36,371 nucleotides of DNA from Aplysia californica. Taxonomy: Eukaryota. Below the pieces are notes generated by a model that saw only the letters and a list, made by a program, of their open reading frames with translations, ran no database searches and was not told where the DNA came from. The translations under genes were made by a program, and so were the position numbers. The DNA lies in assembly GCF_000002075.1 (NCBI RefSeq), contig NW_004797520.1, forward strand, positions 445,094 to 481,464. Reading direction: 5' to 3'. Positions 620 to 31,270 of the stretch are shown here, in pieces. Within the stretch, counting starts at the first letter, position 1. Every line of letters starts with the position of its first letter.

Positions 620-705
<86 letters not shown>
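531..705. repeat. Compound microsatellite (GA)~40 (531-610) followed by (CA)~42 (621-705)
   Basis: Direct reading of the sequence. Confidence 0.98.
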
Positions 706-706
<1 letters not shown>

Positions 707-713
707 CAAAACT

Positions 714-914
714 GTGTCTCACCTTGTGACACATAAACTTGTGTTCCTGCACACAGAAGCAGACGTCGGGGTACGACAGAGGCAGAGACTCACAAAGACA
801 CACAGACACACACACACAGACACAAAGACACAACAAAAGTGTCTCACCTTGTGACACATAAACTTGTGTTCCTGCACACAGAAGCAGATGTCGGGGTACG
901 ATAGTGGCAGAGAC
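714..914 (-). repeat. Tandem duplication of the 3' half of ABTB1 exon 9 plus its donor (copy 714-793; original 838-914), separated by (CA)n-like repeats
   Basis: Two near-identical 77-bp copies of gtgtctcaccttgtgacacataaacttgtgttcctgcacacagaagcaga.gtcggggtacga.ag.ggcagagactc. Both carry CACAAG|GTGAGA on the minus strand. Confidence 0.9.
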
Positions 915-943
915 TCGGGCTCAAAGGGGAGCTCACCCACCAC
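848..943 (-). CDS. ABTB1: ABTB1 start of second BTB domain; the gene continues beyond the window start
   Basis: Acceptor ctttccccag|GTG and consensus donor CACAAG|GTGAGA. Translation VVGELPFEPESLPLSYPDICFCVQEHKFMCHK aligns with ABTB1 ELPFPCPDGFNSCPDICFRVAGCSFLCHK. Phase 0/0. Confidence 0.85.
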
Positions 944-1026
944 CTGGGGAAAGTTTGGGACGACTTGTTTCACGGGTACCATGCCAGATAGGACGGGGAC
1001 ACAAATAACAGTTAGAAGTAGTAATT

Positions 1027-1296
1027 AACCCTATCCGTATGTCGTGTTTTACTATCGTATCCATATGACATGAGGAACTCTGTGCCACCACTTAACCCTA
1101 TCCGTATGTCGTGTTTTACTATCGTATCCATATGACATGGGGAACTCTGTGCCACCACTTAACCCTATCCATATGTCGTGTTTTACTACCGTATCCATAC
1201 GACGTGGGGAACTCTGTGCCACAACTTAACCCTATCCGTATGTCGTGTTTTACTATCGTATCCATACGACGTTGGGAATTCTGTGCCACCACTTTC
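1027..1296. repeat. 67-bp tandem repeat x4; also found inverted at about 17140-17215
   Basis: Unit ccctatccgtatgtcgtgttttactatcgtatccatatgacatggggaactctgtgccaccacttaa, repeated head to tail. Confidence 0.9.
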
Positions 1297-1329
1297 CAAA
1301 GAGGAAATTTACTCATTAATCCGATCCGT

Positions 1330-1480
1330 ACGCTTTGCATAGCAGTCTGTGTGTCAAAATGATTTTTTGAGAAATACTGAAAGTTTTTAAGAGATCTTCA
1401 TACTAGAAGTATTCTAAAGTGTGAAGAATACAACCACGGGGGTACAAAATGACCCAGAGCGTACGGATAGGGTTACGGTG
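1330..1480 (+). mobile_element. Dispersed repeat/TE fragment; an inverted copy lies at 16960-17130
   Basis: 1330-1480 is the reverse complement of about 16960-17130 (..gcatagcagtctgtgtgtcaaaatgattttttgagaaatactgaaagt..). The adjacent 67-bp array is also shared. Confidence 0.7.
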
Positions 1481-1774
1481 TAGAAGTAATTGATGTTTTA
1501 AAGACCTCACTGACAGATTCACATTCCACGATCACTTAACAATCAATTTCTCAGGGTATCCAGGCAAAGACATTTTTCGAATATAAAGACATCAAGAGGC
1601 ATCTTACAACACATTTATGTTCTGTATCATTATTTCTATCAAACTTTCTAATTAAAAAAAACTAGTGGTCAAGTCATAGTTCTGATTTGGGGGGCTCTCT
1701 TTTAAAAATTTTCTCAGAACTTAAAAAAAACTGACATAGGTACTTGAGGAATGATGCTGGAGAGATATATGCAT

Positions 1775-2345
1775 CAACCCTAACGAATTCATCATAGACA
1801 GCTAAAAAGAAGGCGCCAGCAAGAAGAAAGAAGAGAGAGAGAGAGAGGCATTGACTGTAACCAATTGAATTAGTCCGGGATGTTTAAACGTTGGCCACCA
1901 GAAAGTAAGGAGAGATACATCAACTGTGCATCAACTGCACCCTGGAATTAAGTTCATTATAGACAGCTAAAAAGAAGGTGCCAGAAAACAGAGACAGATA
2001 CAACTCAACCATACCATGAAATTGAGTTTGCCACAGAGAGGTAAAAAGGAGGCAGCAAAAAGAAACAGAGAGAGAGAACGCGTCAACCGTACCCAAAAAT
2101 TGAGTAGGTCGGGGAGCACTCAGTGTGCCAGAGAGCAGAGAGAGAACAGATCAACCTTACACAAGAATTGAGTTTGTCACAGAGAGCTAAAAAGAAGCAG
2201 AGAGAGAGAGAACACATTAACCGTACCCTGATATTGAGTTCGTCATAGAGAGCTAATAGCAGAGAGAAAACCCATCAACCGTACCCTGAAATTGAGTTCG
2301 TCATAGAGAGCTAATAGAAGAGAGAGTACACGTCAACCATACCCA
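1775..2345. repeat. Degenerate ~60-bp tandem array, ~9 units; units derive from the exon 8 / intron junction of ABTB1
   Basis: Units like caaccgtaccctgaaattgagttcgtcatagagagctaatag... . The unit at 2081-2140 is ~85% identical to 2328-2390, which is the exon 3' end plus donor. Confidence 0.85.
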
Positions 2346-2464
2346 AGAATTAAGTTGGTCAGGCAGCGCCCAGTGTGCCAGCTGTGCCAGGTCTCGCTGC
2401 AAGACGTCGCTGCCCTGTGATTCCAGCACCAGGGTGGTCACTCTCACACCGGGCTTGCTCGACT
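2343..2464 (-). CDS. ABTB1: ABTB1 inter-BTB linker exon
   Basis: Acceptor ccccccttttcag|AG and donor TCTTGG|GTATGG. Translation (E)SSKPGVRVTTLVLESQGSDVLQRDLAQLAHWALPDQLNSW aligns with ABTB1 ASKPGTCVKVLTIE...LADCALPPELRGDLW. The donor lies in the terminal unit of a tandem array. Confidence 0.8.
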
Positions 2465-2818
2465 CTGAAAAGGGGGGGGGGGAGGAGAGGGGAGGGGGAG
2501 AAAGATTGTAAATTATGGAGAATAGAAACAGTCAGAGTTTGGCATTGGGTTGAAAATGTGGGAAACATGTAACACATTTTATGAGACAATATTTGATGTT
2601 GAGTTAAGTTTTGATCTAGAGTTTAACACTTTGTCATCATATTTGGGGGAAAATCCAAAGAAACTGGGTGGTAAACACATACACAAATACATTATAGTTG
2701 CATAGAACTTGAAAAAAATAAATGAATATGACAGACAGAAGCAATGTCTACACATTTTATCAAAACATGAAGACCACAAATAGCCTGTCGTACTAATGAT
2801 GAAATTCACAAGACATAC

Positions 2819-2935
2819 CCCAGGACAACGTCTTTTTCATCCTGTCCTCTATCTCCGTCATGAGTTCGTAGAGCTGACACTGGCGGGCCAGTTTGAGGCA
2901 GTCGTCCACCAGGTCCATCGACACGCCCATAGAAC
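2819..2935 (-). CDS. ABTB1: ABTB1 BTB1 C-terminal exon
   Basis: Acceptor ccaccccag|GT and donor CTGGG|GTATGT. Translation (G)SMGVSMDLVDDCLKLARQCQLYELMTEIEDRMKKTLSW aligns with ABTB1 ...VSDCERLAKQCQLWDLLSDLEAKCEKVSEF. Confidence 0.85.
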
Positions 2936-3046
2936 CTGGGGTGGGGTCAAAGTTCACGAACGTTAACACTGGGATATCCACATGGAGATCAAAATGTTCC
3001 GTGATACTTTACAAATATTATACGAAGTCGATATTCCCTTGTATTA

Positions 3047-3230
3047 GTTTTAGTAAGAGTTTTACGGTACTTGCAACACAATACGATCATATAAGTGCCG
3101 AGGATTGGAGGTGTTACAAGAGAGTAACAAACACAAATAAAAGAAGGAGGGGAGATAAAGAAAACAGATGTTTGATAGGAAAGAAGGAGCAAACCACACC
3201 AGAGCACCCGTCAACCACCCACATACTGAA
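3047..3230 (+). mobile_element. SINE-like element, family 1
   Basis: Head ttttagtaagagttttacgg.acttgcaacacaata.gatcatataagtgccga..., shared with copies at 4158-4310, 14198-14340, 22678-22870 (+), 22130-22325 (-) and the diverged 7715-7860. Confidence 0.8.
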
Positions 3231-3313
3231 CTCCTCTCACCACTATCACTCGATGAAGACATGAACAAACAAGATTCTTTTTATAATTAAGTAATACAGG
3301 GGGTCCAACCAAC

Positions 3314-3359
3314 CTGTGTACAGATACTGTAAGATTGACCCAAAGGCTCCTTCAGACAT
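3314..3359 (-). CDS. ABTB1: ABTB1 BTB microexon, 46 nt
   Basis: Acceptor ccattttcag|ATG and donor ACACAG|GTTGGT. Translation MSEGAFGSILQYLYT(G) aligns with ABTB1 NPVAFGALLQYLYTG. Phase 0 to +1, consistent with its neighbours. Confidence 0.85.
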
Positions 3360-3795
3360 CTGAAAATGGACGTGAAAAGAACAAAACTTATTTTATATAT
3401 GTACATATGTTACATGCGCGCGCTGTGTGTGTGTGTGTGTGTGTGTGTGTGGGCGCGTGTATGTGTGAGAGAGAGAGTGGGCATGTGTGTGTGTGTGTAC
3501 GTGTATCTTTATTTTTCAAACTCAGATATATGGAATACATATATTTGAACATTTATCGTTCACCAACAGGATTTGTACAGGACAGCGAAGTAAAAATGAG
3601 AAAAACAAGAGTAGTCGATGAAAAGCCATTTTGGTCCAATACAGCCCAGTAGGAAACATTGTGCTTGACAAAAGATTTATTTTTTCACTTTATCAACATT
3701 TTCTTCTTGATCTCATAGTAAAAGTCAAAGTTACCAATTTCGAGGGGAATTTGATGATGAAAATCTCGACAAACAATTGAACAAGGCGCACAAAC

Positions 3796-3955
3796 CAATG
3801 AATGATTCAGCTCCACCACGGGTTTGTTCAGCCATTTTGTCTTGAACATGTTGGCGAAAAACAAGCAGCGGGCGCTGAGAATGCAGCGATGGGCGGGGAA
3901 CTCTTCGCCGTGTACCCGGAACACGACGTCGCTGTAGACTCGGTCCTGTAGCAGT
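3796..3955 (-). CDS. ABTB1: ABTB1 first BTB domain, N-part
   Basis: Acceptor ggccacag|A and a weak donor CATTG|GTTTGT. Translation (R)LLQDRVYSDVVFRVHGEEFPAHRCILSARCLFFANMFKTKWLNKPVVELNHSL aligns with ABTB1 LLEQGIHSDVVFVVHGKPFRVHRCVLGARSAYFANMLDTKW... Confidence 0.8.
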
Positions 3956-4157
3956 CTGTGGCCGGGGAAACAAGCAAGGTTCTTTTCTCAACAAGAATTG
4001 TAATATAATAGATGTTGGGGACAGAAGGAAGATTCTTTTCTCAACAAGAATTGTAATATAATAGATGTTGGGGACAGAAGGAAGATTCTTTTATCAACAA
4101 GAATTACAATATAGAGGTTGGGGACAGAAGCAAGATTTTCTTTTATGTTTTTGTTTT

Positions 4158-4310
4158 GTTTTAGTAAGAGTTTTACGGCACTTGCAACACAATAAGGTCA
4201 TATAAGTGACGAAGATTAGAGGAGTTACAAGAGAGTAACAAACACAAAATAGAATGAGGGGAGATAAGGACGACAGATGTTTGATAGGAATGAAGGAGCA
4301 AATCTAGAGA
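4158..4310 (+). mobile_element. SINE-like element, family 1 copy; preceded by a 55-bp x3 tandem at 3975-4140
   Basis: Same consensus as 3047-3230. Confidence 0.8.
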
Positions 4311-4784
4311 GGGGAGGGGGAGGAGGGGAGAAGAGGTAGGGAGAAGAGGTGAGAAAAGGGGGCAGGATGGGTGAAGTGGGGAGGGCCAGATGAACAAACT
4401 GACAGGTTCCAAGTTCCAAACGTGAATATATGACATCACTAGCTGAAGAAATCTTGGTTACACTTTCTCCACTTCATTTGAAAAGTAGGTGTGAGAAAAT
4501 GTCTTTTATTCATTCTAAAATGTTCAGACAGAAACCCAAATTTTAGCTGCGAGTACATGTGTGTGCTTTTTAAAAATATATAAATCATAGTATGAGAGAA
4601 CTGACAAGAAAATTTGAACAGATGAAATGGCAAAGAAAACAAAATTTGAAATAAAAATGTGTCATCCTCGTTGAAGACATGTGACATCACCTTGCTAATC
4701 CGTGGATTCTGAACTGCCTAAAACTGTAATAAACAACCACCAAAGTTCGCCCCCCCTCCCCATTGAACTTCAATCAAAACGTAC

Positions 4785-4929
4785 CTTCTGAGAAATTCTT
4801 CATACAGCTCCCTCCTGATGGTTCTCGATGAAATAACATGATAGCTCTTCAGCAAGTTTCTGATGTCATCGGTTAATGCCCCATACAGGCAGCGCTCACC
4901 GTCAAAGGTGTTTGCCTCACATTTGGCAC
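4785..4929 (-). CDS. ABTB1: ABTB1 exon, ankyrin end plus linker
   Basis: Acceptor tccctctgctag|GT and donor CAGAAG|GTACGT. Translation (G)AKCEANTFDGERCLYGALTDDIRNLLKSYHVISSRTIRRELYEEFLR(R) aligns with ABTB1 ARCEANTFDGERCLYGALSD... Confidence 0.88.
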
Positions 4930-5443
4930 CTAGCAGAGGGAGAATAAATAATAATAATGACAATAATAATAATGATAATAATAATAATAATAATAATAGT
5001 AATAGTAATAATAATGATAATATTAATAACAATGATAATAATATAGTAATAATAATGATTTTAATAGTAATTATGATAATGATAATAATGATAATAATAA
5101 CAGCACCTATATAGCGCATATTCAAGCCTTACAGCATGCTTGGTGTGCTTTATAACTACCGTTACCCCAGCACACCATTTAAAAAAAATTTAATTGGTGG
5201 CCACTTGAACATTTTTTTTTTGGGGGGGGGGCAGCTCTGGTAATCAATTAAAAATTTTTGCTTAAGAATCAGGAGAAACATGCAAAAGGAAAACCTTTGA
5301 TACTAATATTGTACTGTGACGGCAGATAACGATTGCATTGACAGAGATCTTTTGTTCTTGTACATCCAGTAAAGCACAAGCTGTTGAACATTTTAACGTT
5401 TAGTTCTAGTACATCTTGTAAAGTACAAATTATTATTATTCAC

Positions 5444-5499
5444 CTTTATCCAGCAAATACTCCACAATATCTCTGTGGCCACATAAGCAAGCATAGTAT
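5444..5499 (-). CDS. ABTB1: ABTB1 ankyrin repeat microexon
   Basis: Acceptor ttcttcag|A and donor GATAAAG|GTGAAT. Translation (L)YYACLCGHRDIVEYLLDK(G) aligns with ABTB1 YYACLCGHEELVLYLLANG. Confidence 0.85.
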
Positions 5500-6136
5500 C
5501 TGAAGAATAGTAAAAAATAGAACAGATGTTATCTGCACTAGAAAACGGAAAGACTAGCATTTGTTTCAATGAATTTTACATAACTACATAACGACCAAAA
5601 ATGCCAGCAAAATGATAACAAAATCAGAAAAAAAAGAACCCATTGACATTTTCTGATTGTTTCAAGATAATTTTATGCTATTTCGAGAGTCGCACAATTT
5701 CCAAAATTTCATCAATCTGATTTAGCTAAAGATATTAGCTAACGTATAAAGATGAAACCCACAGACAGAAATCAAATTATTCAACATAGGTAACTGTTTT
5801 CATTCAACTTAGATCACATGGGTCTATACAAAACCCAAAAGCAAACTTGAATAGGAATGGAGTAGGGGAAACCCTTTCAGTCAATAATGCTAGGATTAAA
5901 AAACCTTAATTTCATACCAAGCAAGCTTCTCAGAGTTGTTCAGTAGCAGTCTCCAAGAAATTCGCTTAGAAGTTGTGACCATTTGTACCTATCCAGCCTT
6001 GATAAAGGATGGTAATGAACCACTACACCCACACATTATATAATGAATGCTTGAAAAGCTTGCAACAGATCTATAAGCGTAAATTAAAGTAATGTTTGTG
6101 ACCATTGTCTTAAACAGAGCAACAGAGGCACAGAAT

Positions 6137-6308
6137 TTAACACTTTGCAGTCACACAGCCAGCAGTATTAAATACCCCATCTGGTCACCCAGCCAGGAGA
6201 GCGACTGCAATGGACTTCTCAGGCAAGGCGCAGAACTGCGCCAGGTGACTGGAACGGATCATTTTCACCGTCCCATTTTCATAGCGCCAAGTGACTGCAA
6301 AGTGTTAA
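6137..6308. mobile_element. MITE-like element: perfect 14-bp TIR CACTTTGCAGTCAC with TTAA on both flanks, piggyBac-type target site
   Basis: 6137-6154 ttaacactttgcagtcac equals the reverse complement of 6291-6308 gtgactgcaaagtgttaa. The ~164-bp interior is non-coding. Confidence 0.7.
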
Positions 6309-6465
6309 GGAGAGTGTTGTTATGCCTACAGAGGGGAAAAAGCGATACGACATGGAGGGTGAGAGTCTTAACAAAATGGAACAATGTTAAGATCATCAAA
6401 CTATTAATTCTAATATTTAAAAAACAAGACTACTTTGACAATAGGAAATATCCAGAAAAGCTTAC

Positions 6466-6528
6466 AACGGTGTACTGTCCCATTTATCCCGGGTGTCGAT
6501 GTCTACCTCTTTCATCTCTACAAGATAC
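6466..6528 (-). CDS. ABTB1: ABTB1 ankyrin-region exon
   Basis: Acceptor tcttgtcttcag|G and donor CCGTT|GTAAGC. Translation (R)YLVEMKEVDIDTRDKWDSTP(L) aligns with ABTB1 YLLEQRDVEVNVRDKWDSTPL. Phases are consistent. Confidence 0.85.
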
Positions 6529-6783
6529 CTGAAGACAAGAAGAGAAAACAGAATTTTAAAAACATTCCTTATGATGTATCAAAATATTGTCAGAAACTGT
6601 CCTTGTCAGTTTTAAACAGTGGCATCATAAGGGTCAATAAGGGGCTTTGTTTGAGAAAGATGAAAACAGAAAGAACTGTGTTGATTGAAATTGAATGAAT
6701 GAATGTTCTGGGTGCAGTTAGGAAGTCCATTGCTGACATATATATGGGCGGAAGTGGTGCAAACGCTGTTTTCAGTGTCATAC

Positions 6784-6848
6784 CTGTGTTGAGAAAAAGA
6801 CGAAATAGACAATTCCAAACAATTTTTGCACGACACATTGTCAAAACA
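6784..6848 (-). CDS. ABTB1: ABTB1 orthologue, N-terminal coding exon; 5' limit uncertain
   Basis: Donor CACAG|GTATGA with phase +2, matching the next exon. Translation ...LVTSQCFDNVSCKNCLELSISSFSQH(R) resembles the ABTB1 N-terminus (MDTS.LF.SCRKGD...R). No in-frame ATG exists before the upstream stop, and a TTG sits where the initiator Met is expected. The candidate acceptor is cttcacag|TGT. Confidence 0.45.
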
Positions 6849-7904
6849 CTGTGAAGTGACCAAAACAAAGTACTTTCCTTTGGGACTAGATCTAGATAAA
6901 GATCTTATATCACTTAACCTGCTATAAAAGCTTTCCTTTTATTAGTCATTTGCTGTAAAAGGTTTACTTTTTTACTATTACTATACTATAGATCATGCAA
7001 CGGAAGCAGCTAGTCAGCTCATGCTTTCAATAATTTCTGCAACAAAAAAAAAATATATATAGATCTATATCCTACATAGTATCATAAACAACTCACAATC
7101 TCCTCAAGCTTCAACAACAAACCAAAAACAACTTTCTAGACTCTATAAAAATGATCCGACCCAAGACAACGCACAAAAAAGGCCCAGTATTTCAATTTGG
7201 TACCAGACACTAGAAGAGTCTCAGCTCCAATTGCCAGCCCAAACTTTACCCTTTAAAAAAAAAAAATTCAAACTCACATAGGCTACAATCTTATTTAATT
7301 ATTATATTTATTACAGACGTATAGAATCTAGATCTAGATTAGATCAAGCAGAGACGTAAACGAAACCGAAAATCAAAAACATTTCTCACTGAAGACGCTG
7401 CAAGTCTCCCAATTTGCAAGCATGAAACATGTCTTGAATATCCATTATGGAAATGATAAAGCCAGTAAAGCATGGGGCCTTTGAATTTAAACAATTCAAT
7501 AGATCTATATATTATTTCGACACGGAACACGTAGTAAAATTATCATAAAGTCTGAACACAAATTTCAGGTTACAGTGAAAGAAAGAGAGGACAGCTGATT
7601 CTCTCAGCAGTCAGCAATCCTTTGGCATCAAGAACTTCCGTCAGCAATGTTTACATTTTTCATTATAGGCCTAAAACATTATAGTACAAGTTATGAAACA
7701 TTCCCCCAGGTAGTTTAAAAGCACTTGCGATACTATAAGGTCATATAAGTGCCGAACAAATATTACCAGGAACAACAAACAAAAAAGAAGGAGGGGATAC
7801 AAGGACGATAGGTGTTTGATAGGAATTAAAGAAGCAAACCACAATAGCGCACCCTCCAATCACACGCCTTTCTTTGACTGAAGGTAAAAAAATATAGCAC
7901 ATTT

Positions 7905-7909
7905 TAACC

Positions 7910-7966
<57 letters not shown>

Positions 7967-7991
7967 TAATAATATTATTATTATTATTATT

Positions 7992-8035
<44 letters not shown>
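7905..8035. repeat. Palindromic trinucleotide microsatellite (AAT)n-(ATT)n-(AAT)n
   Basis: aataataat... then attattatt... then aataataat...; an inverted arrangement. Confidence 0.95.
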
Positions 8036-8038
<3 letters not shown>

Positions 8039-8040
8039 GG

Positions 8041-8176
8041 GGGGGTTGATTTTTAAAACAATGTGGTCGCAGCTTTTTGGCCCCGGTCCCAAAAAAAAAA
8101 AAAATTTTACTGCTCGGAAATCCTTTTAATTTGGTTTAAAAATTTTTACCCCCCCCCCCCCCCCCCCCCCCCCCCC
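8041..8176. repeat. Homopolymer cluster: G10 (8041-8050), A14 (8090-8103), C27 (8150-8176)
   Basis: Direct reading of the sequence. Confidence 0.95.
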
Positions 8177-8379
8177 AACCAATCAAAGCAAAAACCTGAC
8201 GAGCTCGTGTGCCGAAGTGCGGCAATTACGGTCAAAGGGAAACAACAAAGAATAAAATGATCAAAATAGTAATTACGGATTTGCCTCCCTTAAATAGGAC
8301 CAACGACGTTTCTCCACGATCATAGTCATTGATCATTGGGTACCAAAGAGGTTACAATAAATAGAACTGGAGGTCTTAG

Positions 8380-8532
8380 TTGTGACGTCACGAGTGTCAA
8401 ACTGGAGATGCGGGCCACCATTCCGGAGAGGAATAAAAGGTCAGTTGGTACACAGCAACACTTTTCAATCACGGATTAATGATACTCTGTGAAGTCTTTT
8501 GATGTTGATTTCTTTTCTTTCTGATTGGCTAT
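8380..8532 (-). promoter_or_regulatory. Promoter-like cluster: palindromic CRE TGACGTCA (8384-8391) and CCAAT box AGCCAATCAG (minus orientation, 8521-8530)
   Basis: Motif reading only. It lies 1.5 kb upstream (minus strand) of the most 5' ABTB1 exon found and could be its promoter or an unannotated first exon region. Confidence 0.3.
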
Positions 8533-10220
8533 CGCATAAATGTACTCATTGGGATTTTTTGTATTGTTTGCCTTTAAATGAGCCAGATAATCACCAAAAT
8601 AATGCAAATAGAGACTTTTACACCATGTGACGACATGCGGGTGTAAAATTCAGAAAAAAATGAATCAACTTGATCATCACTTGTTAAAATATAAAACATA
8701 ATTTTATTGAAAATTTTTGCTGAACGTCGCTCAAACAGTATGTTTAGATTTATCACCGCTGGCTACAACAAGGCGCTCGTTTCGGCCCTCTGGAATCAGG
8801 AATGTGACTGAGAAGCTGCTAGAATAGAAGCTTCAACTGCAACTCTAGCATTCCTTCAAGGCTGGCTGAACGGAAAAGAACCACAGTCGATGTTGTTGAG
8901 ATGAGAGAGTATAAAGTACCCACCAATAAGACCGGCGTAATATTCTGTCTCATTTGCGGAACCGATGCCAAACAGCATGTGCAACAGCAGCAGCAGGGGT
9001 TCATGGAAGATGGGGTGTTGTGTAGCCAAACATCTGTGCCAATTTTAGAAAATATTGTGAACGTTTAAGATAAACCAGTTATTTATCCAAGTGTTGTATT
9101 TTAAAATGTTGTCAGTATATAATTATTTGTGCCCGATATTAAACAACGCTCGTTGGGTGTGCGCACAGGATCCATACAATGAGTGATTTACAGTATCCCA
9201 GCCTACAGTTAATTGCTCATTTTGAGACAATAACGAATTAACATATATTGAATAATTAACCCAGTCTTAACCCCTTTCATACTCTATGAAGACATAGGCT
9301 TTGCATCAGTATAAGGAGAGTGTAGACAACATGACATAAAAGCAATCCATTTTGTAAGTGTGAAGTTGTTCCTTTTCTTAACAAACTCAATTACATTGTA
9401 CCAGTACTCACTTTGTCTTCCTCCACCTCTCCCACACCCCACGTAGTAGAAAGAGCCAGGAGTAAGGGGTGGGGGAAGGGGTGGGGGGAGGGGTGAAAGG
9501 GTGAAGAGTAAAGCTTGTAACAGAACATGACAAGAGTAGGCTACAGGTGAGGAGGAAGACAAAGGGGAACATTGGAGGGAGATACACTTTTCTGTCGCCG
9601 GCATGTTTCGATCCGGGGATCTTTTGACTGAGAGGCAAACACTGTGCATTAAGACCACAATAGCCCCTATCTATTAAATAAAATTGGAATGAAAAAAACC
9701 CCACTCAACACCCCCCCCCCCCCCAGCCCACTAAAAAAAAATTAATTAAGCTTTTAAAACACAACCAAAAAAAAACCCAAACAAAAAACCTCCAAAAAAC
9801 AAACGAAAACAAACAAACCTGAACAAAAAAAACAAACAACCCCCCCCCCCCTCAAATCAGCACACATCTTTACTAAGATGTGAAGGTATCAGAGTCCCTC
9901 ACCACCAGTTTAGTTTGTCGTCTTTAGTCACAGAAAACAAGGGGAGAAAACAGAAAACCAACCAGTTATCGTTTTTTTAAAGTACCGTAGGTGTTTTTAC
10001 ACCTCCATCAACACAATTTAGATCATTTGGGAGACAGGCTTTAACCCTACTTGTCAGGACCACACTGGGCTGCCAAGGATACAACATTCAGCAGAAAGAT
10101 CTAGATTCTTGATAATAAGAATCTCCCCCCCCCCCCCCCCCCCCCCCCCCCACCCTTGGGAAATCAAATTGGGGTCTCCTGCATGCCATGGCGAAGCACC
10201 GAACCACTACACCACAGACG

Positions 10221-10430
10221 TCAGTAGTTGTCCTCTGGTTGGGCCTGAGTGGACCACGGATCAAAGAAGTCTTCGTAGGCAAGTGAAGCATTGCTATCGT
10301 ATAAGTCAGCATGTTTATCCCGAGCCCTTCCTGGATCAAGAACAACAACCTGAGAACTGAGCCCTTGTTCTTTGATCCATTTTTCTCTATCTGGTCGTCC
10401 ATCACATAGCCTACTGTAGCGAAAGCTCAA
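10221..10430 (-). CDS. Candidate terminal coding exon of an unidentified gene
   Basis: A 69-codon ORF follows the acceptor ctttcgctacag|T: (x)RLCDGRPDREKWIKEQGLSSQVVVLDPGRARDKHADLYDSNASLAYEDFFDPWSTQAQPEDNY*. Its composition is protein-like. A second minus-strand ORF in another frame lies just upstream (10578-10808, ...KVFDLDNACIPQRFSFMGSTSVVAAGIQFLQSDQ). No homologue was recognised. Confidence 0.3.
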   Translation of the reverse strand: MSFRYSRLCDGRPDREKWIKEQGLSSQVVVLDPGRARDKHADLYDSNASLAYEDFFDPWSTQAQPEDNY

Positions 10431-10991
10431 TGATTAAAATTTTAATGAACTGAGCAAAAAACAAACAAACAGAGTCTGTAGAAAAAGTTTACTTTCACCT
10501 CCATACATATATTATACAAAAATGGAAAAAATTTTCCTCTTTCTAATGGAGGTTTTCTGAATAACATAAGCTTCGTGCTATCTTGCACTGACTCCATTTT
10601 TCTGGTTTTGATCACTCTGAAGGAACTGAATACCAGCAGCAACAACAGAGGTACTACCCATGAAGCTGAACCTCTGAGGAATACAGGCATTGTCCAAATC
10701 AAATACTTTTTGGCTCAAGGGGCAGCTTTTTTCAACAGCGTTGACAGTCGCGACAAAAACTCCCAAAAGTGGGAAATTGGAGTCTGTGCAAGACAGCACA
10801 TGGATCACAATCTGGCAATGTCACTCCATTGGTAACAATAGAATCGGTGGGATATAATAGAAACCTTTTCATCATGTACAAATTTTGCTATGTACACGTT
10901 TTAAATACGAGGAATATAATAATATATATATACACACACATGACATGGAAGAAAAAATTCGGGACCTGGAAATCTCTTGTCATACATTTCC

Positions 10992-11365
10992 TTTCTTTCC
11001 TTCATCCTAGCATTCATCACAACAACTTTCTTCTTTCCTTCATCCAAGCATTCATCACAACAACTTTCTTCTTTCCTTCATCCAAGCATTCATCACAACA
11101 ACTTTCTTCTTTCCTTCATCCAAGCATTCCTCACTACAACTTTCTTCTTTCCTTCACACTAGCATTCAACACTACAACTTTCTTCTTTCCTTCACACTAG
11201 CATTCATCACTACAACTTTCTTCTTTCCTTCATCCAAGCATTCATCACTACAACTTTCTTCTTTCCTTCATCCAAGCATTCCTCACTACAACTTTCTTCT
11301 TTCCTTCACACTAGCATTCATCACTACAACTTTCTTCTTTCCTTCACACTAGCATTCATCACACG
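10992..11365. repeat. 47-bp tandem repeat x8, abutting the tail of the 11395-11800 SINE
   Basis: Unit ccttcatccaagcattcatcacaacaactttcttctttc repeated with minor variants. Confidence 0.9.
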
Positions 11366-11394
11366 ACCACAGCGCAGAAATTACACCTGGACTT

Positions 11395-11800
11395 ACCCCC
11401 CGCGGCGGTGCCACTCACTGAAGTGTCTTTAGGCCATTCCCAAAGGGGGGACATTTCTCGTTCTAATGCACAGTAGAATTGTAAAAGGGCAGATCCAACA
11501 ATGTCATGCTCATAACTGTGCCTAAACTACAACAGGAAATGCCTGCTTTTTCTTTCCTAATCCTTACTATCATCATTTTCCTCTACTTTTTTTGTATGTT
11601 TGTCTTACTCTTGTGACCCGCTATTTCCGGGGTGCCTTGATGGTCGAAGCAGACTTTGTGCTGTTGAAGCTAGAGAGGTGAACAGAGTAAGTCTGATTCC
11701 CTGTAAGGACTTCTCTGTTGACATCCACCTCTTGGCGCTCATATGACCTTATGCAGCTGCGAGCGCCGTAAAACCTGTACTAAAACTAAACACTTGGACT
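11395..11800 (-). mobile_element. SINE-like element, family 2 copy, starting ~12 nt after the Kelch-gene stop codon and forming the 3'UTR; abutted by a 47-bp tandem array
   Basis: Reverse-complement match to 30878-31270. Confidence 0.8.
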
Positions 11801-11808
11801 TGTGAAGT

Positions 11809-11990
11809 TCACACGACCACAGCGCTGAAATTACATCTGGACTTGCAAAGAGAAGCCACGCGTCTCCACCGGTCCCCGTCAGTTGTCGGCACCGTGGGAT
11901 CTGCGACTTCCACAAAGTTGGACACGATCCTCGCCCCACCCGGGTACCAGCCGCCCAGGTCAGCGTGTTTCTGAGACGCATACGATTTTC
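11809..11990 (-). CDS. Kelch last blade, terminal coding exon; stop TGA at 11809-11811
   Basis: Acceptor tctcttctcccttacag|GA. Translation (G)KSYASQKHADLGGWYPGGARIVSNFVEVADPTVPTTDGDRWRRVASLCKSRCNFSAVVV*. The phase matches the previous exon. The 3'UTR starts inside a SINE-like element. Confidence 0.65.
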
Positions 11991-12430
11991 CTGTAAGGGA
12001 GAAGAGACGGAGATTTTCCTGTACGATACAAGAGACGTAGAAAAAAATATAAGACTTTATTCACCGGACAAATAAAATCTTAAGTCCCAATAGTTTCCTT
12101 CTTGTGTAAGACTGAGACATCTTAGAAGCAGCATTTCCTCAACGCAGAAACGGAATTAAGTTTAAAATATGGCCATTGTTAGTTGTTTTGTCTAAATCTA
12201 TGATAACTCATCACGTACGATTTTCCTGTACGGTAGAAGAGATGGAGAAAAAAAAATATCACTCTATTCGCTGAGCAAATAAAATCTCAAGTCCCAACAG
12301 TTTCCTTCATTGTGTAAGACTCTAAGACATCTAAGCAGCAGCATTTTCTCAAAGCACAAACGGAGTTCAGTTTTATGATATGGCCATTGTTACTTTTTCC
12401 GTCTAAATCTATGATATCTCATAATGATAC
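11981..12430. repeat. ~205-bp tandem duplication, 2 full copies plus a partial copy that contains the real acceptor of the terminal Kelch exon
   Basis: Units start tacgattttcctgtac[ag].ta.aagaga.ggag.... The partial unit 11981-12012 reads ...cctgtaaggga, which is the exon 10 acceptor. The full units carry ..cgtacag|GAAAATC on the minus strand. Confidence 0.85.
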
Positions 12431-12644
12431 CCCAACGAGTCAGACGAAATGCTTCATGGGCACACACATGTAGTAATGTAGTTTATTGTGAGTGATATAT
12501 CAAGGTAGCGATAAAGAGCCAGAAGCCCAGAGGAGGGGGGAAAGGAGGTGAGGGCAGAAAGTGGAGATGAAATCAGAAAACAGAACATTGCTAGAAAGCA
12601 GGAAAGGAAATGAAAGGAGTCAATTTTAGAGAAGAAAATGTTTC

Positions 12645-12738
12645 TGTCGCTATCCGGATTCGAACCCGGGACCTTTGAATTTGAAAGAGAGGCGAACACC
12701 TTAACCTCTAGGTCACGAGAGCTCCCCACCAATAGTGA
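12645..12738 (-). ncRNA. tRNA-derived SINE head / tRNA pseudogene with a B-box GGTTCGAATCC, 15 bp downstream of the Kelch exon 9 donor
   Basis: Minus-strand sequence GGGGAGCTCTCGTGACCTAGAGGTTAAGGTGTTCGCCTCTCTTTCAAATTCAAAGGTCCCGGGTTCGAATCCGGATAGCGACAG. The T-arm has a 1-nt deletion relative to a canonical stem, and no acceptor-stem pairing was found. Confidence 0.5.
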
Positions 12739-12753
12739 ACAGGCTGCACTTAC

Positions 12754-12927
12754 CACCAATAGTGTAGAGAAGACCATCCATGGCCAGACTACAGTGATGA
12801 GAGCGAGAGTGCTGCATCTCGGCAAACATCAACCACTTGTCCTCCCGGACATCGTAGCGTTCACATTTCTGCAACCGCCTGCGAGGATTTTCCCCACCAT
12901 ACCCACCAGAGACAAATATTTCCTCAC
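12754..12927 (-). CDS. Kelch repeat exon
   Basis: Acceptor caattgcag|GT and consensus donor GGTG|GTAAGT. Translation (G)EEIFVSGGYGGENPRRRLQKCERYDVREDKWLMFAEMQHSRSHHCSLAMDGLLYTIG carries YD..EDKW and LLYTIGG Kelch motifs. Confidence 0.8.
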
Positions 12928-13479
12928 CTGCAATTGCAAACAAAAGACAGGATTTTTTTAGAGAAACCAGCACAATTTCAAAACTAACAGTTTATTTTAA
13001 AAAGTAAGAATTTATTGTACACAAAGTAGGCCTAAAAAATAAGATGACGGCAACACTTGGAAGAGACAAAAGTTATAAAATATCATTAACTAACCACTAG
13101 CCACATACATAATTACCTCTTTTTTTCTTATATTTTCAACAGTCTCTTATTCCAGAGTTTGTCTTTCCCGTGAGAAGACATAATAATCTTGTCTTGAAGA
13201 CACAGGTGTGTGTTTTTTTTTTTTGTCTTTTTCGGAAACATCGACCACACTATAATTTGTAAACATCCACATCATCGGGGAAAAAGTAGGCCAAGATGGT
13301 GATTGTGTTATGAACATTTATACTATCAGACAAAAAGTAGGCCCTATCACTATTTGATTTTAAAATCATTTCTTTCACAGGAAAATGTCTTTGAGGAGCT
13401 TCGTTTCAAAGTTATCACAGCAATGGCAGGACTTATGTATTCTCCAGCTAGTAAATGACAACAAATGCCCTTCACTGAC

Positions 13480-13702
13480 CTAAAGAGACCACAGCGAAGT
13501 CACACCTAGTGCTGATCATGCTGGACTTGGTCAGCCATCTTGTGTGGTCTTCACTCAGCGCCAGAACCGCGTCGGAGAAGACTCGTTCCCACATCGGGCC
13601 GGAGAAGCCCCCCAGGAGGAAGAGCTGACCTTTGTGCACGACCGCCTTCAGGCCGCAGTGGCTGGCGTCTAGCACAGTGGTCAAGCTGGGCAGGGGTCTT
13701 TT
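13480..13702 (-). CDS. Kelch repeat exon
   Basis: Acceptor cccctaaag|AAA in phase 0 and donor TTTAG|GTCAGT. Translation KRPLPSLTTVLDASHCGLKAVVHKGQLFLLGGFSGPMWERVFSDAVLALSEDHTRWLTKSSMISTRCDFAVVSL carries the LFLLGG double-glycine blade motif. Confidence 0.75.
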
Positions 13703-13721
13703 CTTTAGGGGAAACAGAAAT

Positions 13722-14197
13722 TAAGTTTTAGTTTTAGTACAAGTTTGATGGAACTTGCAACAACACAAAAATGCGTCATATAAATGCTGAAACAGAAAGA
13801 GAAGTGAATCGATACAGGCAAGAGAGCTTTTCTTTGGAGGACTCAGAAATTTAGTTTTAGTTTTAGTTTTAGTACAAGCTTCATGGAACTTGCAACAACA
13901 CAAAAATATGTCATAAAAATATAAATGCTGAAACAGAAAGATAAGTGAATCGATATAGGGCAGTGGACCTTTCTTAGGAGGACTCAGAAATTTAGTTTTA
14001 ATTTTAGTACAAGTTTCATGGAACTTGCACCTCAAAAATATGTCAATATAAAAGCTGAAACAGAAACAGAAGTGAATCGATACAGGGCAGGGGACCTTTC
14101 TTTAGAGGAAACAAATTAAGTCGTAGTTTTAGTAGCCTACAAGTTGCATGGAACTTGCCATACAAAAATAGGTCATATAAATGCTGAAACAGAAAGT
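13722..14197. repeat. ~125-bp tandem array x~4 in a Kelch-gene intron; units end with copies of the exon 8 acceptor plus the first ~17 nt of the exon and begin with a family 1 SINE-head-like segment
   Basis: Unit ends cagggcaggggacctttctttagaggaaac correspond on the minus strand to cctctaaag|AAAGGTCCCCTGCCC. The real acceptor is cccctaaag|AAAAGACCCCTGCCC at 13702. Confidence 0.85.
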
Positions 14198-14340
14198 TTA
14201 GTTTTAGTAAGAGTCTTACTGCACTTGCAACACAATACAATAAGGTCATATACGTGTCGAAGAGTAGAGGTATTACAAGAGAGTAACAAACACAAAAAAG
14301 GAGAATGAGAGATAAGGACGATAGCTGTTTGATAGGAAAC
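14198..14340 (+). mobile_element. SINE-like element, family 1 copy, in a Kelch-gene intron
   Basis: Same consensus. The minus-strand ORF of the Kelch exon runs on through it in the intron, a reading-frame artefact. Confidence 0.8.
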
Positions 14341-15204: not shown

Positions 15205-15425
15205 ATACGGGGAATCAGGCTTACTCTGCTCACCTCTCTAGCTTCAACAGCACAAAGTCTGATTCGACTATCAAAGCACCCTGGAAAAGAAGCAGAGGAA
15301 AAATGACGATAGTAAGGATGAGGAAAGAAAAAGCAGCAGTTCCCCCTATGTTGTTCCGGCACAGTATGAGCATGACATTGATAAATCAGCCCATTTACAA
15401 TTCTACTGTGCATAAGAACATGCTA
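15205..15425 (+). mobile_element. Partial family 2 SINE copy
   Basis: Matches 30950-31200 (tcagacttactctgctcacctctctagcttcaacagcacaaagtctg...). Confidence 0.7.
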
Positions 15426-15525
15426 TTATCCCCTCTTTGGGAATGAAACAGGGATTTGACCAAACTATCTGCAATATGAACTGGATATTCGATTCCTCTA
15501 AAACCGGAACAAGACGTTCACCTAC

Positions 15526-16545: not shown

Positions 16546-16790
16546 AGCATCATCATCGTCATCATCACCACCATCATTGTCATCATCATCATCATCATCA
16601 CCATCATCATCACCATCATTGTCATCATCATCATCATCATCATCACCATCATCATTATCATCATCATTATCATGATCATCGTCATTATTTGTCATGATGA
16701 TGCTCATCATCGTCATCATTATTGTCTTTATTGCTGTCATCATCATCATTTCGTCATCATCATCATTGTCTTCATCATGTAGCCTTTCCC
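16546..16790. repeat. (GAT)n / (ATC)n trinucleotide tract, ~240 bp, intronic, ending at the acceptor of the BACK exon (16532)
   Basis: catcatcat... on plus. On the minus strand it reads in frame as poly-Asp/Asn directly upstream of the exon. Confidence 0.95.
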
Positions 16791-16929: not shown

Positions 16930-17220
16930 AACTCAGGGACCCTGACAAAAATGGTGCTTAACTCTCTCCGTACGCCCTGGGGTCATTTTGTACCCCGGGG
17001 GTTGTATTCTTCACATTTTAGAATACTTCTAGCTCAAAGATCTCTTTCAAGACTTTCAGTATTTCTCAAAAAATCATTTTGACAGACTGCTATGCAAAGT
17101 GTACGGATAGGATTAACAAGTAAATTTCCTCTTTCGAAAGTGGTGGCACAGAGTTCCCCACGTCATATGAATACGATAGTAAAACATGATGTAAGGATAG
17201 GGTAAGGGAAAGAAAATGAG
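16930..17220 (-). mobile_element. Second, inverted copy of the same dispersed repeat, in a Kelch-gene intron
   Basis: Reverse-complement match to 1000-1480. Confidence 0.7.
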
Positions 17221-17626
17221 TTAAGCTTGATAAAGAGGTCTTTTCAAATCAACGTGAGAAAAAAAAATGAGTTTGGTTTTACACAAGGGTCTTCACAAAT
17301 AAACATGAAAATAAAATAAATGAGTTTGACTTAACAGAGCAGTCTCCTCAAATCATTATGAGAAAAAAAATATTTGGCTTGACAATACAACCCACATTAT
17401 ATTGTCTTGAACGTATCGGTGTTCTTGTCTTTAATAAAGAAGTCTACCGAATCCCACCATGATTTGCTGTGTAGATCTCAATACTGTATAAAAGAAATTA
17501 AAGACTGAAAAAAACCCAATAATCTGACTGAATGCTAGCCTAGTTTTCACAGACACCTTTTCCATAGAAAAAGAGAAAATTAAAAAACCACTCAAACGAT
17601 CAAAATGGCCATAGCCAGTCACAGAC

Positions 17627-19638: not shown

Positions 19639-20160
19639 CTGCTCAAGTAAACAAAGTCAGATATCAAAACACCTGTACTGTAGCACTTTAAAAAAGACAT
19701 AATCTAAATAAAAGCAAAAATCTCTTACTTTAGACACAAATGGTGAGTTTTTCTATGTTTATTTGTTTAGAAGCACAGTGGGCAAGGAGAGGCATTTCAG
19801 ACCATTTCTCTTACCCAACAATGGAGTCCACTTATTATGAAATCTGGAGACATGAATTCTTTAGAGTTCAGTTCTAGAAGTTCGCAAATTAAACAGTACA
19901 AATGTGTCCAAAATGTTTCCAAAACCATTTTGTTTATCATGTTTAGAGCAAATGCAGATAGATATAAAATGTTGCTTTCATCTGTTTGTTCTCAGGTCTT
20001 ATTTATATTATCATTATCATCATCATTTTATTATTATAATATAATATTATTATCAACTATCATTAATATAATTACATCATCATCATCATGATCAATTATC
20101 ATCACTATCATTAATATCATCATAATTAATGCAATTACAAATACAATACTACTACTTTAC

Positions 20161-22129: not shown

Positions 22130-22870
22130 CCTCACAAGGGTGGTTGGCGGGTGCTCTGGTGTGGTTTGCTTCTTCTTTCCTATAAAAAATCTATCGTCTT
22201 TATCTCCCTTCCTTCTTTTCTGTGTTTGTGACTCTCTTTTAACACCTCTAATCTTCAGTACTTATATGACCTTACTGATTTGCAAGGGGCGTAATGCTCT
22301 TACTGAAACTAAAAAATCACAATGACTTAACAGAAAGCTTAATCCTGTTCAATGTCTTATTTGTATTTATTAGACGTAGGCTGCAGGCCTACCTGGTACT
22401 GGTACGTCAAAAAAATGCACAATTTTCCACACTTTGAGGTTTCAGAGAATGCAGAATACATAGTACTGCAAGGGTCAATAAATGGTGTCACTTCACACAG
22501 GAGGGCACGGACAGAGCCTCAGTGGGACCACCTCTCCCTCTTGGAAGAAACTTGAACCATAATTTGTTTTTCAAAAGAGTAGAGGACCAGCGAGTTATTT
22601 CACAAGCTTAACAGTAGGTATCCAACTTACTGCAACTGCTTCAGCATTGTTGCTAAGAGACCATTGTACTGGGGTTTTTTTTAGTAAGAGTTTTACGGCA
22701 CTTGCAACACAATAAGGTCATATAAGTGCCGAAGATTAAAGGTGTTACAAGAGAGTAACAAACATAAAAAAGAAGGAGGAGCGATCAGGACGATAGATGT
22801 TTGATAGGAAAGAAGGAGCAAACCACACCAGAGCACCAGCTAACCACCCACCATTGTCCTGTGGTAGATA
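22130..22870. repeat. Inverted pair of family 1 SINEs (22130-22325 minus orientation; 22678-22870 plus orientation), about 190-bp arms and a ~350-bp spacer
   Basis: The reverse complement of 22678-22870 aligns base-for-base with 22130-22320 over most of its length. Confidence 0.85.
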
Positions 22871-23530: not shown

Positions 23531-24828
23531 TGGCATTAATAATGTTATTCGTGTATTTCACTATTGATGAAAAGGTGTATAAAAAATTTGTTCACGTAAA
23601 ATTTTCTGAACAGCAAAATGAGCATTCACAACATCGACACGCGCTATATTAACCTTTTCCTGTTCACACGGTTTGCCATCAACAATGGCCGCTCATTTGT
23701 TCAACTCCTCATATTCCTGTATTCTTTTGCACTCAGTTAAAGTGAACGTAAATTCCAACAGTCGATAGATCTACCAGCTTTGACACTTTCCAAATCAGAA
23801 ACGAAAGCAAAGCTACAACTTGATGTCCATGATTTATTTTTAGAAAAGCCACGTCTACACAGTATCAGCATCAGCCCCAAGGGTATTCCTTCTGCTTTCA
23901 ACTGAGTTAACTCCAGAGTACGTATTTTTTAACAGCAAGGTAAAGTGAACACGAAAGGGTTGGCGTGATCAAATAATACTATCATTGTTATTATATATGA
24001 TTATTATTATTATCACAATCTTACATAATACCAATGCTCTACAGTCGTATCACATTTCTGCATTATATTGTGAGCAAAGAAGAGTAAATGATTGTATAAA
24101 GTTATGCTCTATGCCCCCATCACCACAATATAATAGATCATCCTGGACCAGCCCAGACTAAGTAGGATACAATATCCCAGCACAAAGGTGGAGATACTTT
24201 ATAAAACATACGATACTTCCCAAAGTGGGAACTGAGCTCTTGTCTTCTGTAAGCAACAGCGAAGAGTCAAACCATTGCACACCACGGACGTTAATTTAAA
24301 AAAAGAGTGTTTTATCACAGTATTTACATTGACTTAAGGAACACAGTACATGTATTGGTACCAGATAAGAAAATGCTATGATAAGCATAAACTAGTTGCA
24401 CAAGAATAATAACAACTAAATAATGAACCATAGAAGGTGGGGCAGCAACGCAACCTGTGCACAGAGTACTGATCAATAAATAATGCCAAAGTAAACTGCT
24501 AGTAAAATTACTACTTTCAACTAAGATTTCCACAACCCAATATAAAAGCATTGTGAGTTAATAAAAATGAAAGACCCCCTGCCCCATAAAAAAGAAACCA
24601 TCAATACACTCCAGAAAACACTCGAAAGGGCCCAAACAGGTGTTAAACAAAAATTAGAATTATTTTCTTTCAACTCTTATCACCACTCACAAAAGTCTAG
24701 AAGCTGATTAAAACATAGATCAAATGTTATCCTTATCCTTTCTTAGTGTCCCCATGATACCAAAGGCATTAGGACTTTGATGAAAAGTGAGTGACTGGCT
24801 CGAGGTAAGCCTTAAAGTCATGAGTCAG

Positions 24829-24990
24829 TCAGACTTTCCGAGTGGAACAAGTCAAAATAAGTCAGACTTTCTGAGTGGAACAAGTCAAAATAAGTCAGAC
24901 TTTCCGAGTGGAACAAGTCAGAATCAGTCAGACTTTCTGGATGGAATAAGTCAGAATCAGTCAGACTTTCCGCGAGGAACAAGAACAAAA
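24829..24990. repeat. 33-bp tandem repeat x5 (agtcagactttccgagtggaacaagtcaaaata), downstream of PARP3
   Basis: Direct reading. It produces periodic 11-aa pseudo-ORFs on both strands. Confidence 0.9.
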
Positions 24991-28094: not shown

Positions 28095-28560
28095 AACGGA
28101 AAAACAATTTGTAATAATACTTTCTTCCCACATGGTATCTACCCACATGGTACTTTGTATCTTCCCATATGGTATCTACACACATGGTACTTTGTATCTT
28201 CCCATATGGTATCTACACACATGGTACTTTGTATCTTCCCATATGGTATCTACACACATGGTACTTTGTATCTTCCCATATGGTACTTTGTATCTTCCCA
28301 CATGGTATCTACACACATGGTACTTTGTATCTTCCCATATGGTACTTTGTATCTTCCCACATGGTACTTTGTATCTTCCCATATGGTACTTTGTATCTAC
28401 ACACATGGTACTTTGTATCTACACACATGGTACTTTGTATCTACACACATGGTACTTTGTATCTTCCCACATGGTACTTTGTATCTACACACATGGTACT
28501 TTGTATCTTCCCACATGGTACTTTGTATCTTCCCATATGGTACTTTGTATCTTCCCATAT
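28095..28560. repeat. Composite minisatellite of 15-bp (ggtatctacacacat) and 22-bp (ggtactttgtatcttcccacat) units, ~25 units, in PARP3 intron 8, starting 14 nt from the exon 8 donor
   Basis: Direct reading. It creates 130-250 aa pseudo-ORFs on the plus strand. Confidence 0.95.
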
Positions 28561-28576
28561 GGTAAGGAGTACAAAC

Positions 28577-30877: not shown

Positions 30878-31270
30878 AGGGGGTTTTACGGCGCTCGCAA
30901 CTGCATAAGGTCATATGAGCGCCAAGGTGTGGGTGTCAACAGAGAAGTCCTTACAGGGAATCAGACTTACTCTGCTCACCTCTCTAGCTTCAACAGCACA
31001 AAGTCTGCTTCGACCATCAAGGCACCCTGGAAAAAGCAGGTCACGAGAGTGACAAACATACAAAAGAAGTAGAGGAAAATGACAATAGCAAGGATTACGA
31101 AAGAAAAAGCAGCAGTTCCCTGTTGCAGATCAGGCACAGTTATGAGCGTGACATGAATCAGCCCATTAACAATTCTATTGTGCTTGAACAAGAAATGTCC
31201 CTCCCTTTGGGAATGGCCTAAAGACACTACAGTCAGTGGCACCGCCCCGGGGGGTGACCGTTCTCCAAAT
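30878..31270 (+). mobile_element. SINE-like element, family 2, in PARP3 intron 4
   Basis: Head gttttacggcgctcgcaactgcataaggtcatatgagcgccaag..; body gacttactctgctcacctctctagcttcaacagcacaaagtctg.ttcga.catcaa. Copies at 11395-11800 (-) and 15205-15425 (partial). Confidence 0.8.

Follow-up and report, generated by a model that had tools for sequence, protein, structure and literature searches.

In intron 7 of the human F7 gene, a variable number tandem repeat with a 37-bp unit presents the authentic donor followed by identical silent pseudo-sites, and the most upstream donor is chosen by 5'->3' scanning (Borensztajn et al., 2006, PMC1557585). Similar minisatellites have been described in IFI6 (6-16) intron 2, CBS intron 13, LMNB2 and PDGF intron 4 (PMC1557585). 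A related body of work concerns intron gain or sliding by tandem genomic duplication, the Rogers-type model (Hellsten et al., 2011, PMC3265369; for Drosophila, PMC2891723; for potato RdRp, PMC4974935). Here we describe four tandem arrays, referred to as (a) to (d), in a 36,371-nt stretch of the Aplysia californica genome (assembly GCF_000002075.1, contig NW_004797520.1, positions 445,094 to 481,464 of the forward strand; hereafter the window). Arrays (a) and (b) lie in ABTB1 and arrays (c) and (d) in a BTB-Kelch gene, and each repeats the splice junction next to it. They are probably ordinary intronic minisatellites, whose founding local tandem duplications straddled ancient exon-intron boundaries by chance in short introns.

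Four arrays that repeat the neighbouring junction

For each of 55 junctions in the window, a probe made of 30 nt from the exon and 30 nt from the intron was compared with the intron of that junction. Strong alignments that cross the junction were obtained at exactly four of them, which are those of arrays (a) to (d); these alignments score 51-98, where the maxima for shuffled sequence were 21-26. BLAST E-values for the array copies range from 1e-13 to 6e-55. Chance similarity is ruled out by the shuffles and the E-values, and the four arrays that a preliminary description had placed beside their exon junctions are borne out where it located them. Tandem Repeats Finder (TRF) and the alignments show that all four are intronic and arranged head to tail. 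From the exon maps and alignments, the terminal monomer of each array overlaps the exon and holds the authentic splice site, with an exon stub of 69 nt in (a), about 33 nt in (b), 8-10 nt in (c) and about 15 nt in (d). The splice site is then repeated as pseudo-sites in the other monomers: as an identical donor in (a), six times in (b), twice in (c) and three times in (d). The polarity is the same in 4/4 arrays, the decoys lying downstream of the true site where it is a donor and upstream of it where it is an acceptor. The copies are 4-40% diverged, indels included, and are therefore not assembly duplicates.

The exons against which the arrays were mapped belong to a BTB-Kelch gene, ABTB1 and PARP3, all on the minus strand. 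Translations of the window exons match kelch-like protein 17 (P0001) and PARP3 (P0055) of A. californica at 100%, and exact spliced alignment to these proteins has a single GT-AG solution, giving ten Kelch exons from 20326 to 11809 and eleven PARP3 exons from 34033 to 25646. P0001 and P0055 are both recorded on one contig of 1,004,601 bp. No Aplysia ABTB1 protein was found in the protein database; the exons of this gene were set by tblastn against ABTB1 from Bulinus, Biomphalaria, Candidula and a bird, together with frame-consistent GT-AG sites. Nine ABTB1 exons fall within the window, from 7445 down to 848, and the partial protein of 287 residues is open and collinear with its homologues. GT is present at 28/28 donors and AG at 28/28 acceptors. 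The gene names and exon numbers first assigned to ABTB1 and Kelch agree with these spliced alignments and homologies. Database look-ups of P0001, P0055 and two window open reading frames gave no independent copy of the locus.

Array (a) follows coding exon 9 of ABTB1 (848..943, minus strand; tblastn to Bulinus and Candidula), which is 96 nt long in both Aplysia and Bulinus and ends at the donor AAG/GTGAGA (847/846), the slash within a splice motif marking the junction. An intronic copy of the exon end, the donor (GT at 722-721) and about 20 nt of intron is found at 703..791 (minus strand; local alignment and TRF). Positions 830-916 and 703-791 align on the minus strand over 87 nt with three substitutions and one 2-nt indel, and the copy takes in the last 69 nt of exon 9, rather than the 60 nt originally given, with the same donor AAG/GTGAGACAC. 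TRF reports 664-916 with a period of 125, 2.0 copies and 91% matches, 703..791 being the second copy. The copies are parted by a degenerate GT-rich spacer (792-847), and the second is followed by pure (GT)n and then a (CT)n run. The copied exon end (723-791) encodes YPDV, as in Bulinus, Candidula and vertebrates, and the functional exon (848-916) encodes YPDI; the decoy may preserve the older residue state.

Array (b) follows coding exon 8 of the same gene (2343..2464, minus strand; donor TGG/GTATGG at 2342), whose junction ...LPxxLxSW/VVGELPF is conserved and is present in Bulinus too. The array (1762..2342, minus strand; MAFFT, in-register identities, anchors and TRF) consists of eight units of about 58-80 bp derived from the exon 8 end. 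The units (2317-1762) each align to the last ~33-40 nt of the exon and about 25 nt of intron, and donor copies are recognisable in six of the eight, with the donor G at 2284, 2226, 2160, 2092, 2014 and 1940. The best match is unit u4 (2135-2068), in which 26/33 exonic and 21/25 intronic positions agree with the authentic junction. The likeness noted before for the unit at 2081-2140 is thus real, at 81% instead of about 85%. Units u1-u3 show clear homology on both sides (19-21/33 exonic, 19-20/25 intronic), u5-u6 are of lower identity and u7-u8 are marginal. GG/GTACGG, first thought to be carried by every unit, occurs in three; three others have GT/GTAAGG, TG/GTATGG and GG/GTGCAG, and the last two are degenerate.

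In the Kelch gene the arrays precede the exon. The terminal coding exon (11809..11990, minus strand; spliced alignment to P0001) has the acceptor cccttacag/GAAAATCG, compared with the array copies as cccttacag/GAAAATCGTATG. Array (c) (11991..12440, minus strand; BLAST, alignments and TRF) contains two ~205-bp units, 12012-12211 and 12219-12422, which are 84% identical over 204 nt (E = 6e-55) and each end ...cgtacag/GAAAATC. The spare acceptor ccgtacag/GAAAATCGTA (first 'exon' nucleotide 12225) carries 10 exon nt. The second, tcgtacag/GAAAATC (first nucleotide 12018), lies within a nested 28-bp duplication (TRF 11984-12041) that adjoins the real acceptor. The 15-mer TACAGGAAAATCGTA has exactly two occurrences in the window against 0.12 expected. 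The two extra acceptors and the 205-bp unit stand as first reported, the nested duplication being a correction to that account.

Array (d) (13703..14196, minus strand; TRF, alignment and 15-mer search) lies before the eighth Kelch coding exon in the window (13480..13702, minus strand; authentic acceptor cccctaaag/AAAAGACCCCTGCCC). It is built of ~135-bp units with three spare acceptors at 14099, 13972 and 13831, whose exon-side bases agree with the start of the exon at 13/15, 12/15 and ~10/15 positions. Each of the three intronic units closes with ...aag as its acceptor, and the bases next to it are AAAGGTCCCCTGCCC, AAAGGTCCACTGCCC or AAAAGCTCTCTTGCC. TRF places the array at 13688-14196 with 3.6-3.9 copies and a period of 135-141, so that the extra acceptors of the preliminary description were found and its period of 125 was not.

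Position weight matrices (PWMs) were derived from the genuine sites of the window apart from these, 26 donors and 26 acceptors, and used to score the decoys; donors were scored against a generic 5' splice-site matrix as well. Both scorings are approximate. In (a) the authentic and decoy donors are identical at 8.6, and in (b) the authentic donor scores 5.4 and the decoys 5.2, 5.2, 3.1, 4.1, 7.0 and 0.6. The authentic acceptor of (c) scores 11.0 against 7.2 and 2.2 for its decoys, and that of (d) 4.0 against 4.1, 1.6 and 1.0. Among acceptors the decoys are on the whole the weaker sites, in a sample too small for a test. By these scores the decoys are plausible cryptic splice sites, and the earlier view of them as ready-made for such use is credible. 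If used, every decoy would cause a frameshift or a premature stop. The decoy of (a) adds 125 nt and shifts the frame, and those of (b) reach a stop 13 codons into the intron. The decoys of (c) lead to stops after 15 or 19 codons and truncate the last Kelch blade either way, and those of (d) to stops after 18, 83 or 36 codons. The stop after 15 codons had been predicted from a copy in array (c) and is exact for the acceptor at 12225.

Exon edges older than the arrays

The exon ends that are copied into the arrays are conserved in distant homologues. In ABTB1 the stubs ...ALPDQLNSW/VVGELPF... and ...YPDICFCVQEHKFMCHK/ match Bulinus and Candidula, and the motifs ALPxxLxSW and YPD(V/I)CF...MCHK within the copied ends are shared with both. 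In the Kelch gene, /KRPLPSLT and GG/KSYASQK match a 45%-identical homologue (P0002), which has LPSLT and TIGGKSYASQK. The ABTB1 locus of Bulinus truncatus (L001) was splice-aligned, and intron positions were compared for ABTB1 introns 8 and 9. The exon lengths are 63, 56, 145, 160, 46, 125 and 96 nt in B. truncatus, and 63, 56, 145, 160, 46, 117 (exon 7), 122 and 96 nt in Aplysia, the 117-nt Aplysia exon 7 having no counterpart in that Bulinus model. The intron positions after ...TSW/ and ...MCHK/ are shared by Bulinus, whose introns there measure 365 and 96 nt and contain no minisatellites. A Bulinus intron also holds a 556-nt run of 'C' (1817-2372 of the locus), which TRF scores as period 1 with 78% matches and which is probably masked or low-quality sequence.

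Since the stubs are conserved and the Bulinus introns lie at the same positions, the exon edges and introns are old. The arrays appear as younger additions in the Aplysia lineage, in which, on the sequence comparison, the exon edge was copied into the intron and not the reverse. Exon capture from a pre-existing array was considered as a candidate and is ruled out by the conserved exon ends and intron positions. Gain of ABTB1 introns 8 and 9 by tandem duplication also fails, both positions being present in B. truncatus.

Simple sequence is found at or beside the breakpoints. Three of the arrays adjoin simple repeats: (a) has a GT microsatellite beside it, (b) has CT-rich runs, and (d) has the ACTAAA-repeat tail of a short interspersed element (SINE)-like sequence. 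The unit of (a) ends in the GT microsatellite with a GAG microhomology (…cccGAG/tctctg and …tgtGAG/tctctg), the units of (b) end in CT runs, and the breakpoint of (c) has a 3-nt microhomology, GTA.

The SINE-like family consists of six copies of a ~180-bp element in 36 kb, with the tail ACTAAAAC(T/A)AA. Five copies are in gene orientation (3039-3222, 4151-4302, 7712-7871, 14196-14339 and 22675-22855) and one is inverted (22138-22316); scans of the window gave no Rfam or tRNA match for the element. The copy at 14196..14339 (minus strand; self-BLAST, six-copy family) lies directly upstream of array (d), and all units of that array, the one with the real acceptor included, contain the last ~60 nt of the element (they align to it with scores of 43-61, where shuffled sequence reached at most 28). 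The Kelch intron 14364-13703 is almost wholly made of this copy and the array from its tail. Creation of this intron by insertion of the element, in the manner of introners, was considered as a candidate origin. Weak similarity to the head of the element extends to the donor of this intron, and no target-site duplication was seen there. As the units of (d) also hold unique intron, acceptor and exon bases, the arrays formed in place and were not borne by the element. Three copies of the family lie sense-oriented 0-500 nt upstream of acceptors, and the tail motif TACTAAA looks like a branch-point consensus.

These observations are consistent with a simple course of events. A founding unit of 28-205 bp that reached across an exon-intron boundary would have been duplicated in tandem by replication slippage, microhomology-mediated duplication or unequal sister-chromatid exchange, which the sequence does not distinguish and which are put forward here as candidate mechanisms. 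One copy would stay contiguous with the exon as the functional site, namely the 5'-most for donors and the 3'-most for acceptors; when a tandem duplication straddles the boundary, no outcome other than an authentic copy contiguous with the exon is viable. The remaining copies would become intronic decoy splice sites with an exon stub, and later duplications would expand the arrays. The decoys could persist because the exon-contiguous site is used, which for donors the scanning rule of human F7 would predict. The occurrence of four such arrays in 14 kb would reflect mainly a repeat-rich region with many short introns, and not a process that seeks out boundaries.

Recurrence and alternative explanations

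The window holds eight intronic minisatellites, namely arrays (a) to (d) and those at 1025-1294, 3964-4144, 17244-17369 and 28123-28564. Two of the others end close to a junction. The 53-bp x3.3 array at 3964..4144 (minus strand; TRF, sequence and junction scan, matching within the intron only) runs from the tail of the SINE-like copy 4151-4302 to a point 8 nt short of the acceptor of ABTB1 exon 5, which it does not cross, its last partial unit forming the pyrimidine tract. The 22-bp x~20 array at 28123..28564 (minus strand; TRF, PARP3 map and junction scan), with a 74-bp higher-order period, starts 12 nt past the PARP3 exon 8 donor (28576) and neither crosses the junction nor duplicates the donor. 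The remaining two, 1025-1294 and 17244-17369, have units of 67 bp and 53 bp.

Placing whole arrays at random gives p ~ 3e-7 for six of eight lying within 12 nt of an intron end, a null that ignores array growth. A fairer null lets a single duplication of unit size fall anywhere, at random, in the intron as it was before expansion; under it, 4/8 junction-spanning arrays compare with 2.0 expected (p = 0.08). The duplication mechanism proposed in the preliminary description is thus upheld as far as tandem units formed in situ across the boundary are concerned, and the preference for spanning boundaries that it implied is not. The introns of the ancestor are likely to have been very short (96-365 nt for those of Bulinus), and with short introns and units of 60-205 bp a duplication will often meet a boundary by geometry alone. 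Because, in addition, the window was picked for the pattern seen there, no boundary-seeking mechanism is needed for the four arrays. The recurrence is only modestly above chance and near the geometric expectation for a repeat-rich region of short introns.

Several points nevertheless weigh against founding by chance and silent decoys. Six of the eight arrays span a junction or come within 12 nt of one, where the unit-duplication model expects 2.3 (p = 0.003, a post hoc count); several microsatellites also lie 15-37 nt from junctions, and there are hints of a bias toward intron ends beyond chance. The null model itself depends on guessed pre-expansion intron lengths, and the sample is a single assembly. 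At the splice sites, 5/7 decoy donors and 2/5 decoy acceptors score like typical real sites by PWM, so that some mis-splicing at the decoys is plausible. That the decoys are silent and the exon-contiguous site is used is inferred from the fit of the RefSeq protein model and the conservation to the authentic sites.

A bias toward intron ends is what would be expected if a junction-associated process placed arrays there preferentially, for example slippage at low-complexity tracts near splice sites or DNA instability coupled to transcription or splicing. We regard such a process as unlikely. Both the post hoc count and the whole-array null speak in its favour, as do the nearby microsatellites and the simple repeats that flank (a), (b) and (d). 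However, spanning proper stands only at the 4 against 2.0 given above, the window was chosen after the fact, short introns force repeats near their ends, and no molecular signature of a special mechanism was found. It is doubtful that in Aplysia, or in repeat-rich molluscan genomes, arrays form or persist preferentially at intron ends and leave decoys at a sizeable share of junctions (4/55, 7% in the window); if so, the cause would be junction-coupled mutation or selection for decoy arrays as splicing buffers.

Under another alternative the arrays are functional, as reiterated U1-binding or 3'-splice-site modules that would buffer or regulate splicing of the neighbouring exon, or as a source of regulated truncated isoforms, for example a Kelch protein without its last blade. 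Decoy donors do keep near-authentic scores, GGTA.GGTTGA next to the donor is the best-conserved part of the units of (b), and transcripts that use the terminal-exon decoys would probably escape nonsense-mediated decay. Against this, the divergence of 4-40% between units looks roughly neutral, the arrays are missing at the orthologous Bulinus junctions, the decoy acceptors are mostly weaker, and the RefSeq Kelch protein (P0001) matches the authentic sites only. A function for the decoys is accordingly improbable, somewhat more so than a junction-associated origin.

An assembly artefact, or chance resemblance in low-complexity AT-rich repeats, is very improbable and largely refuted: although tandem repeats are hard to assemble in a draft scaffold and copy numbers may be wrong, the copies differ by 4-40% with indels, unlike duplicated reads, and the scan scores, the E-values and the two occurrences of the array (c) 15-mer are far from the values for chance given above. 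The reverse course, in which intronic arrays came first and the exon acquired their terminal unit through sliding of the splice site or exonisation, is hardly credible, since the conserved stubs and the intron positions shared with Bulinus place the exon edges before the 4-40%-diverged arrays, even though part of each unit of (d) comes from the SINE-like element and the last unit includes the authentic 3' splice region. Chance founding of ordinary minisatellites across old boundaries is left as the reading that best accounts for the four arrays.

The window is rich in other repeats. Long microsatellites lie close to splice sites at four places: (AAT)51 (4947-5100) is 17 nt from the ABTB1 exon 4 acceptor, (CAT)76 (16548-16778) and (TAA)33 (26607-26704) are 15 and 32 nt from acceptors of the Kelch gene and PARP3, respectively, and an ATC-rich run (20003-20123) is 37 nt from a Kelch donor. 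By a rough count, 4/6 intronic microsatellites lie within 40 nt of a junction, where about 1 is expected. A dispersed element with internal 67-bp tandem repeats occurs at 1025-1475 and, inverted, at 16959-17203; the 67-bp repeat is present in four copies at 1025-1294 and once at 16959-17203. Members of a ~380-bp family of 75-89% identity are found at 11395-11775, 15206-15445 and, inverted, 30882-31255, one copy being directly downstream of the Kelch stop codon. Further repeats lack any association with junctions: the homopolymers C28 (8149-8176) and C31 (10125-10155), which lie in the stretch that separates the Kelch gene from ABTB1, and two arrays downstream of stop codons, 38-bp x9.7 for Kelch (10993-11362) and 33-bp x4.8 for PARP3 (24827-24983).

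Comparison with known systems

Repetition of a splice site within a minisatellite is an experiment of nature on how splice sites are chosen, and the F7 array has served to demonstrate 5'->3' scanning. The window adds two donor-side examples and two acceptor-side mirror images in an animal with rich transcriptome resources. The acceptor-side arrays are a possible natural test of how the 3'-most complete 3' splice module is chosen. If the decoys were used, frameshifted ABTB1 transcripts or a Kelch protein without its last blade would follow, and arrays of this sort can mislead both gene predictors and the interpretation of variants. Literature searches returned no described acceptor-side boundary-spanning minisatellite, which is not proof of novelty, and no relevant report specific to Aplysia.

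Tandem-repeat arrays seeded at the tails of transposable elements are a general phenomenon. Array (d), whose units hold the last ~60 nt of the SINE-like element, and the array at 3964-4144, which starts at a SINE-like tail, resemble them, but the units of (d) differ in also holding unique intron, acceptor and exon bases. The arrays share with intron gain by tandem duplication a short duplication that carries splice signals and adds a nearby site, the redundant copy being spliced out. In that process, however, an intron is made or shifted from a duplicated exonic AGGT, whereas the Aplysia arrays only add decoys to ancient introns.

The closest likeness is to F7. In arrays (a) and (b), as in F7, the first monomer reaches across the exon-intron boundary and the authentic donor is followed by reiterated pseudo-sites. 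The F7 array has a 4-bp exon stub and identical pseudo-sites, whereas the stubs of (a) and (b) are 33-69 nt long and most of their copies are diverged. Silence of the pseudo-sites and copy-number polymorphism have been demonstrated for F7. Arrays (c) and (d) form a mirror image of F7, in which the last monomer reaches across the intron-exon boundary at the acceptor. The arrays are a further example of the known F7-type structure.

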